DNA from: Kofleriaceae bacterium
GTDB taxonomy: Bacteria; Myxococcota_A; Polyangia; Haliangiales; Haliangiaceae
NCBI GenBank assembly: GCA_046160585.1
Contig: JBJXGN010000312.1
Coordinates: 1 to 11,526 of the forward strand
DNA length: 11,526 nt
Direction of reading: 5' to 3'
Positions within the stretch are counted from its first letter, which is position 1. The number at the start of each line of letters is the position of its first letter. Below are positions 11,205 to 11,526 of the stretch, piece after piece. The notes under the pieces were generated by a model, which ran no database searches, was not told the origin of the DNA, and was given only the letters and a program-made list of their open reading frames with translations. The position numbers were made by a program, and so were the translations under genes.

Positions 11205-11390
11205 GGCGCCCTCTTCTCGACTCGGCGTCTTGGCGGTAACGCCGAAATGGCGCCCTCTCTCGACTCCGCGTCTTGGCGGTAACTGCACCCCCTCGACTCC
11301 GCGTCGTGGCGGTAACTGCGCCCTCGACTCCGCGTCTTGGCGGTAACTCCGAAGTGGCGCCCTCTTCCGCGACTCCGGGTCTTTGCGGTT
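11205..11390 (+). repeat. Array of 4 near-perfect 24-nt direct repeats TCGACTC(C/G)GCGTC(T/G)TGGCGGTAAC plus a degenerate 5th; spacers are short and variable, partly themselves repetitive
   Basis: Copies lie at 11217-11240, 11260-11283, 11293-11316, 11324-11347 and, degenerate, 11370-11390. Spacers are 19, 9, 7 and 22 nt; the long ones share GGCGCCCTCT(T)C, also seen at 11205-11216. Each core contains the small hairpin CCGC-gtcttg-GCGG. Confidence 0.8.
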
Positions 11391-11526
11391 GGAGGTAGCA
11401 TGCTCGCGTGGTGCGTCGCGACGACGTCGGAAACCGATCTGCGAAAGCGGGCTCGAACCTGACGTCTCGCTGTGAAGATCCAGCGGGTGAGAGTCCCGTC
11501 TCGGTAAGCGGAGACGCGCCGAGTAG

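Follow-up and report, generated by a model that had tools for sequence, protein, structure and literature searches.

Short extragenic repeats that often occur as foldback inverted pairs, that are packed into intergenic spacers and that are depleted from divergent promoter regions are known from the REP/BIME and REPIN-RAYT systems (PMC3116915, PMC3337134), and all of these traits recur in the repeats described here. The REPIN-RAYT system furthermore combines a majority of gene-less elements with a small nuclease or transposase gene flanked by inverted repeats (PMC3116915, PMC3337134), and the same division is found among our elements. The gene is however a different one, since RAYTs are Y1/HUH tyrosine transposases and typically single-copy (PMC3116915, PMC3337134), whereas here it encodes GxxExxY, a protein of PD-(D/E)XK fold that is present in many cassettes. 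The repeats likewise differ in their build. A REP is an imperfect palindrome of 20-40 nt with a 5' GTAG (PMC3116915, PMC3337134), whereas the repeat unit of the window, by which we mean the whole stretch of 11,526 nucleotides that was analysed, is non-palindromic, having a self-stem of 4 bp, and is without this 5' GTAG. Unlike REPs and REPINs (PMC3116915, PMC3337134), the arms of the elements described here furthermore consist of tandem words of 8-9 nt in variable copy number, and the core word is common across phyla.

The 23S rRNA IVS of Coxiella, which carries an S23p ORF (PMC4990558), is similar in that a small selfish ORF is bounded by complementary sequences and lies in sense orientation in a host transcription unit, where excision of the stem could render it harmless. 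The cassettes described here are however found between protein genes of operons and not in rRNA, their ORF belongs to another family, and any RNase III processing of their stem would be putative. MITEs and foldback transposons share with our elements the terminal inverted repeats round a short centre, the presence or absence at orthologous sites and the derivation from a gene-bearing parent by internal deletion, as is seen when locus L056 is compared with L010 (below). Unlike MITEs, however, the copies are not near-identical, only their words being conserved, they are not accompanied by the usual transposase, and no target-site duplication was identified in the comparison with loci L002 and L003, which are too diverged for one to be delimited.

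BOX elements of Streptococcus pneumoniae and STRR repeats are modular intergenic repeats with variable tandem sub-units, from which long stem-loops can form in transcripts, and we know of no gene associated with either. The elements described here resemble them in being modular intergenic arrays of variable tandem sub-units, but they are unrelated in sequence, differ in word length and have a fixed polarity, CGCCAAGA followed by TCTTGGCG. STRR heptamer arrays of cyanobacteria are mentioned in PMC2670836. Literature searches that used the sequences, peptides derived from the arrays and the family names brought up nothing on GxxExxY function or on the present repeats, and the array family and its tie to an uncharacterised nuclease thus appear to be undescribed in the literature covered.

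The foldback and its site ahead of panC

The first-pass annotation of this DNA had pointed out an array of four near-identical 24-nt cores with 1-2 substitutions and a decayed fifth, downstream of the gene of a Cys-rich membrane protein (10103-11182, plus strand, TGA at 11180-11182; 359 aa, P0001, 100% identical to the database protein with locus tag ACKV2T_39130 from a Kofleriaceae (Myxococcota) MAG). All five are present, the first four at 0-1 mismatches to the consensus TCGACTCCGCGTCTTGGCGGTAAC. On the plus strand, copy 1 (TCGACTCGGCGTCTTGGCGGTAAC, 11217-11240) has one mismatch, copies 2 (11260-11283) and 4 (11324-11347) are exact, copy 3 (11293-11316) is a GTCGTGG variant with one mismatch, and the decayed copy 5 (GCGACTCCGGGTCTTTGCGGTTGG, 11369-11392), which a repeat finder places in the same family, is identical in 18/24 positions and forms the outer right end of the array. 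Two repeat finders both recover the array, and the consensus at 0-1 mismatches is found four times in the window as against not once in 200 dinucleotide-preserving shuffles of the window; the 24-mer has no other copy elsewhere in these 11.5 kb. Consecutive cores are separated by 19, 9, 7 and 21 nt, and the sequence that the longer spacers had been said to share, GGCGCCCTCT(T)C, indeed occurs three times, at 11205-11216, 11249-11259 and 11356-11367. It may be read as an additional, decayed word of the repeat unit, judging from TTGGCGCCCTTGGCG in related elements.

Each core had furthermore been thought capable of forming only a weak 4-bp hairpin. This holds for the core on its own, but it overlooks an inverted copy on the minus strand (AACCGCCACACGCGGAGTCG, 11185-11204), which is the reverse complement of copy 3 minus 1 nt and which pairs with a direct copy in a stem of ~20 bp (-33.4 kcal/mol, z = -2.7). 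The segment 11178-11400 likewise folds better than 200/200 shuffles (z = -4.2). Since the inverted copy pairs with the direct copies and the fold is this stable, the object is a foldback element of ~208 nt (11185-11392) and the array is its larger arm, with one inverted unit on the left, a centre of 12 nt (GGCGCCCTCTTC, 11205-11216, plus strand) that forms the hairpin loop and coincides with the first of the three spacer motifs, and five units on the right. The inverted termini of the element read AACCGCC...GCGGTT; it starts 2 nt past the TGA of the Cys-rich gene and ends 16 nt ahead of the GTG of panC.

The next downstream gene is this panC, whose start codon (GTG, 11408-11410) was placed by alignment to relatives. 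The GGAGG at 11391-11395 is followed on the plus strand by TAGCATGCTCGCGTG (11396-11410), which ends in the GTG and matches TAGCATGCcCGCGTG/AAC in the relatives. In three related loci (L002, L003 and L004), the gene of the Cys-rich protein is followed after 10-16 nt by TAGCATGCnCGCGTG and the panC start, the panC of L002 and L003 beginning at the GTG equivalent to that of the window, and neither repeats nor array words are found in the spacer between the two genes in any of the three. Because the spacer of the relatives is so short and TAGCATGCTCGCGTG is common to both arrangements, the ~210 nt of repeats are an addition to a short spacer, and their presence is specific to this lineage. The element appears to have been inserted into a spacer of 10-16 nt, the comparison of filled and empty site being one between loci whose Cys-rich proteins are 67-76% identical to that of the window.

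The similarity of panC to its relatives ends exactly after the GTG (11410), and the RF02003 domain-I model matches from 11481 to the contig end (E = 3e-5, the match being cut off at the 3' contig end); from these two observations it follows that a group II intron sits within panC, right after its start codon. The 5' part of the intron, beginning with GTGCG, occupies 11411-11526 on the plus strand, and as the assembly breaks within it, the intron probably occurs in more than one copy; a comparison of the intron fragment with plasmids gave no match. The intron adjoins the repeat element, its 5' end lying 19 nt past the foldback, and is not part of it. In the window the repeats thus stand between panC and its operon partner, and an intron in addition breaks up the gene. 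The array had furthermore been described as ending in GGAGG followed by the ATG of a 20-codon ORF, and while the positions are right (GGAGG at 11391-11395, ATG at 11400), the ORF itself is an artefact of the panC start region running into the group II intron: its ATG is out of frame with and upstream of the panC GTG, and the frame continues into the intron as far as a TGA at 11460, whereas in the relatives the same out-of-frame ATG reads ATG CCC GCG TGA and stops after 3 codons.

Several other readings of the repeats were considered, and most of them were rejected. That they are not a CRISPR array had been stated in the first-pass annotation and is correct, since such arrays have repeats of 24-48 nt and unique spacers of ~26-72 nt, whereas the spacers here are 7-21 nt and mutually repetitive and the window ORFs are without cas domains. 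Neither do they form a coding repeat, as had likewise been stated, or encode a small hydrophobic peptide, since related elements differ in how the reading frame falls on the words. The earlier suggestion of a structured small RNA is conceivable but unsupported, no Rfam family matching the array even at E <= 10, besides chance-level microRNA and lncRNA rows, and no promoter-like (sigma-70-like) or terminator-like site being found within the element; a sigma-54 or ECF promoter does not fit in its spacing, as read from the sequence. A fragment of a tRNA 3' end or att site was considered as TCGACTCC is T-loop-like, but a search for tRNAs with ARAGORN gave none, either in the window or in the foldback-bearing locus L001 (see below), and there is no T-stem partner. 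The R'/R'' consensus of attC sites does not fit and the neighbours are ordinary operon genes, which disposes of integron cassettes, and arrays placed round an AT-rich centre as a replication origin are in poor agreement with the fact that several elements may be found as little as 1.5-3.6 kb apart.

The array family and its association with GxxExxY genes

A 23-mer of the core, with two degenerate positions, has a single copy among species-representative genomes, in a Pyrinomonadaceae (Acidobacteriota) MAG, and is absent from the JGI contigs; the 24-mer variant of the window is therefore private to its lineage. The Pyrinomonadaceae copy (L001, 4290-4409) is a gene-less intergenic foldback with ACGCCAAGA upstream, and its right unit equals copy 1 of the window over 23 nt, but as we estimate that ~0.1-0.3 such matches between phyla are expected by chance, this match alone proves little. 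The viral collection contained neither the 20-mer nor relatives of GxxExxY. The shorter pattern GCGTCTTGGCGG N{12,42} GCGTCTTGGCGG, for which we estimate a chance expectation of <1, matches more than 120 metagenome contigs among the matches listed, and 714 kb of contigs selected by this two-copy pattern were taken as the array sample.

The arrays of this family consist of (T/C)CTTGGCG words repeated 2-3 times and ending in TCTTGGCGGT(A/T)(A/C)A, with a period of ~29-66 nt; the unit type of the window element is CGACTCCGCGTCTTGGCGGTAAC. Many of them are found at contig ends, and repeats of this class cause metagenome assemblies to break. They are arranged as outward-facing inverted arrays, with CGCCAAGA-type words on the left and TCTTGGCG-type words on the right, and the order of CGCCAA followed by TTGGCG words, which is also that of the window, is observed in 41 clusters as against 5 with the reverse order. 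The centre between the arms measures 59 nt in the median and frequently consists of an AT-rich stretch of ~44 nt. Unit number and spacers vary freely between loci. The asymmetry of one word on the left and many on the right is furthermore seen at L010 594-722 and at L047. Units built from other duplicated words occur with the same grammar, namely TTCATCGGCG TTCATCGGCGG TTCC, CCTTCGTGT CCTTCGTGG CTAAA, TTTATCTGCG TTTATCTGCGG CTTGA and TTAATCCTG TTAATCCTG, and are found in L021, L023, L038, L039, L056, L089 and others. The AT-rich centre of ~44 nt (ATGAAAAAnC...TTTTTCAC/AT) is common to many gene-less foldbacks (L111 2423-2466, L086 9204-9248, L087 901-945, L058 6372-6415) and resembles the stop-codon-proximal trailer of GxxExxY cassettes (TGAAAAnTTTTTGTTTTGC...), and may accordingly be read as a possible footprint of ORF loss.

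When the arms lie 400-550 nt apart they enclose one small ORF, and this ORF is GxxExxY in all such cases (TIGR04256, E ~1e-42; PF13366, PDDEXK_3). Searching the 714 kb of array-selected contigs with the GxxExxY HMM gave 19 genes, every one of which (19/19) adjoins arrays, and in 15 of the 19 the left side bears CGCCAA words and the right side TTGGCG words, the exceptions being at contig ends or beside further arrays. Since these contigs had been chosen for their arrays, the reverse test was run from the protein side, and arrays were found on both sides of the gene in 7/7 distinct loci picked by protein homology only (Burkholderiales, Betaproteobacteria and Bacillota MAGs), with (G/T)AACCGCCAAGACGCCAAGA... 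ahead of the start codon and ...TCTTGGCGTCTTGGCGGT(A/T)A past the stop codon. In the Bacillota cassette both arms have TTGGTG and in L134 both have GCGCCTTGGCGG, and the arms therefore change together. The cassettes are co-oriented with their neighbours and wedged between stop and start codons of operon genes, their host sites being ispD|ispF, AAA-ATPase|VWA, AP-endonuclease-2|oxidoreductase and helicase|methylase. Other small genes between arrays are those of cytochrome c, NifU and IspF, which are host genes lying between two separate elements, and that of one HNH endonuclease, and none of these recurs. The latter ORF (L038 559-948; PF01844, 1.8e-9) has CGCCAA-type arrays on both sides and is the sole nuclease other than GxxExxY seen beside arrays.

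The membership of the window element in this family was judged with an independent profile, made from 21 units of the seven homology-picked GxxExxY loci only and searched with nhmmer. It matches the window at the repeats only, namely at 11220-11240 in copy 1 (E = 0.006), at 11264-11283 in copy 2 and 11328-11347 in copy 4 (both E = 0.009) and weakly at 11297-11316 in copy 3 (E = 3.5). At the outer end of each unit the core word ...GCGTCTTGGCGG runs into T(A/T)(A/C)A, the arrangement is inverted and outward-facing (inverted at 11185-11204, direct from 11217), and the element fills the spacer from stop to start codon between neighbouring genes, which in the family are usually co-directional. Identity to the family amounts to ~13-17 nt per unit plus the architecture, and with an independent profile, the same polarity and the same niche all in agreement the membership is well supported. 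As a member of the family the copy in the window is unremarkable and decayed, and no GxxExxY gene or fragment is present in the six-frame ORFs of the window, as searched by HMM, or in 47 kb of related loci.

Origin and possible role of the window element

Elements without a gene are indeed frequent in the family, the array-selected contigs holding 53 gene-less foldbacks as against 19 GxxExxY genes. By a rough call of orientation, 43 gene-less elements lie between co-directional genes in 23 cases, convergent genes in 17 and divergent genes in 3, and the spacer is usually filled whole. How such elements may arise is illustrated by the ispD|ispF site, where an all-against-all comparison reveals an intact cassette in L010 and L052, while L056, with flanks 90-93% identical, has kept both arrays and ~70 nt of the ORF. 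Two deletions, located at short direct repeats (TTCGAGCGTyAGA and GGCAT), account for the loss of the remainder (L056 820-1030 compared with L010 60-760), and since the ORF has here decayed in situ, gene-less elements can be relics of resident cassettes. The spread of non-autonomous copies is a possible alternative source. We consider it likely that the window element is one or the other, that is either a relic after ORF loss or a non-autonomous copy of a GxxExxY cassette, which was inserted in this lineage. Among the three candidates that the first-pass annotation had put forward, the remnant of a mobile element is thus the one that fits best, as the array matches those flanking GxxExxY cassettes, and what had been a hypothetical regulatory array is replaced by the probable relic of an inserted element.

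It could be argued that the array is a purely local minisatellite which grew by slippage and whose likeness to the GxxExxY-flanking arrays is coincidental, since its unit is GC-rich like the host genome, agrees with the family over just 13-17 nt and has no second location in the window. Such a coincidence is however very improbable given that the independent profile matches three of the units at E < 0.01 but no other part of the window, that the element shares the polarity of the family and includes an inverted copy, that the niche from stop codon to start codon within an operon is likewise the same, and that a unit is shared over 23 nt with the Pyrinomonadaceae foldback, for which ~0.1-0.3 matches are expected by chance. 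Even less can be said for the proposal that the cores are iteron-like operators of a locus-specific regulator, which the first-pass annotation had imagined to act on a gene beyond the window. Direct repeats at regular spacing upstream of a start codon would suit such a role, but the core is not specific to this locus, being found beside unrelated genes in more than 120 unrelated contigs among the matches listed, and the downstream gene, panC, starts inside the window and in the relatives comes 10-16 nt after its upstream gene, with no sites of this kind between the two. In addition, the element contains no promoter-like site and no regulator gene is adjacent, the Pfam matches of the window being to a vault-like protein, a Ser/Thr kinase and a GST, and we regard this proposal as scarcely credible.

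Terminator hairpins are targets of class C introns, and the proximity of the group II intron, with two lineage-specific insertions within 230 nt and an intron 5' end at 11411 only 19 nt past the element, could be taken to mean that the array is a stem-loop target motif of this kind or debris of repeated insertions. The 148 kb from 17 array-bearing loci contain however no group II intron, nor any other Rfam family, and the cores, as read from the sequence, are unlike domain V or VI, which makes a link between array and intron highly unlikely. A somewhat better case, although still an unlikely one, can be made for the hairpin as a candidate host-beneficial cis element of the operon mRNA that is kept by selection, either for processing or stabilization in the manner of REP/BIME or as a translational uncoupler which gives panC its own Shine-Dalgarno sequence. 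The element is placed between two co-directional genes without promoter or terminator consensus, its fold is stable, its outer end provides the GGAGG located 12 nt ahead of the panC GTG, at a place occupied by GGGC in the relatives, and related elements avoid divergent promoter regions. A benefit of this kind is on the other hand in poor agreement with the relatives, which manage with a spacer of 10-16 nt and no element, with the free variation of unit number and spacers across loci and with the fact that panC is here itself interrupted by an intron. It should also be mentioned that a host function would be compatible with the element being a relic, since it concerns function and not origin.

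Returning to the element as a relic or non-autonomous copy of a cassette, it would be co-transcribed with the operon, and the resulting RNA, or single-stranded DNA, would form the ~20-bp stem. A comparison of sense and antisense pairing energies, bearing on a role as RNA or as DNA, gave 11/16 (p = 0.2). The arrays may serve as cis sites for propagation of the cassette or for its processing or excision, perhaps by the GxxExxY nuclease. For the host, the element would probably be selfish or nearly neutral, and it may incidentally affect the processing of the mRNA and the translation of panC.

The GxxExxY protein and further features of the window

The GxxExxY gene encodes a protein of ~125 aa with a PD-(D/E)XK nuclease fold (TIGR04256/PF13366), in which the catalytic D...E-x-K is invariant (D71, E81 and K83 in A2). 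The AlphaFold model is confident (pLDDT 92), and among solved structures it comes closest to lambda exonuclease, Cas4 (SSO0001) and MGME1 with TM ~0.5; searches by sequence gave no match in the PDB, PADLOC gave no match to defence systems and the sole, weak PHROG match is to a family of unknown function. The family is very large, with 32,862 representatives of clusters at E <= 1e-3 and 13,197 at 1e-10, and its protein clusters at 50% identity number 13,000 or more. It is one of the larger protein families without known function. Array-derived peptides (MNRQDAKDAK... and ...SWRLGG) lie within the called ORF in 18 of the best 150 representatives as against 3 after shuffling, and the arrays thereby create spurious N- and C-terminal extensions in gene calls. 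Many of the best representatives (P0241-P0244, P0246 and others) are furthermore 250-295 aa long with two matched stretches, and they represent either tandem cassettes joined in a single reading frame or genuine fusions of two domains.

The bracketing by arrays and the operon setting provide a testable context for GxxExxY, in the form of a cis element on which the nuclease may act. We tentatively propose, while holding the odds to be slightly against it, that arrays and GxxExxY together represent a very widespread and undescribed class of selfish cassette embedded in operons, in which the nuclease would recognise or cut its own foldback, as DNA or RNA, to propagate or excise the cassette, and of which the gene-less foldbacks would be the non-autonomous or relic population. 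If so, gene-less foldbacks would stand to GxxExxY much as REPINs do to RAYTs, albeit with another enzyme and another repeat grammar.

A few further features of the window may be mentioned. A tandem repeat with a period of 12/24/36 (CCACnCATCGATCC...) at 1187-1300 lies within overlapping long ORFs on both strands and is probably a coding low-complexity repeat unrelated to the array. In the region 7963-10100, an 804-aa ORF on the minus strand has no Pfam match, and in L003 and L004 its position between the GST and Cys-rich genes is taken by minus-strand MFS_1 and metallophosphoesterase genes, so this region may differ from the relatives. Finally, the 936-aa ORF at 2089-4899 has major-vault-protein shoulder and repeat domains (PF11978, 1.8e-23; PF17795, 5e-9) and encodes a bacterial vault-protein homologue, which adjoins the Ser/Thr kinase and GST genes.
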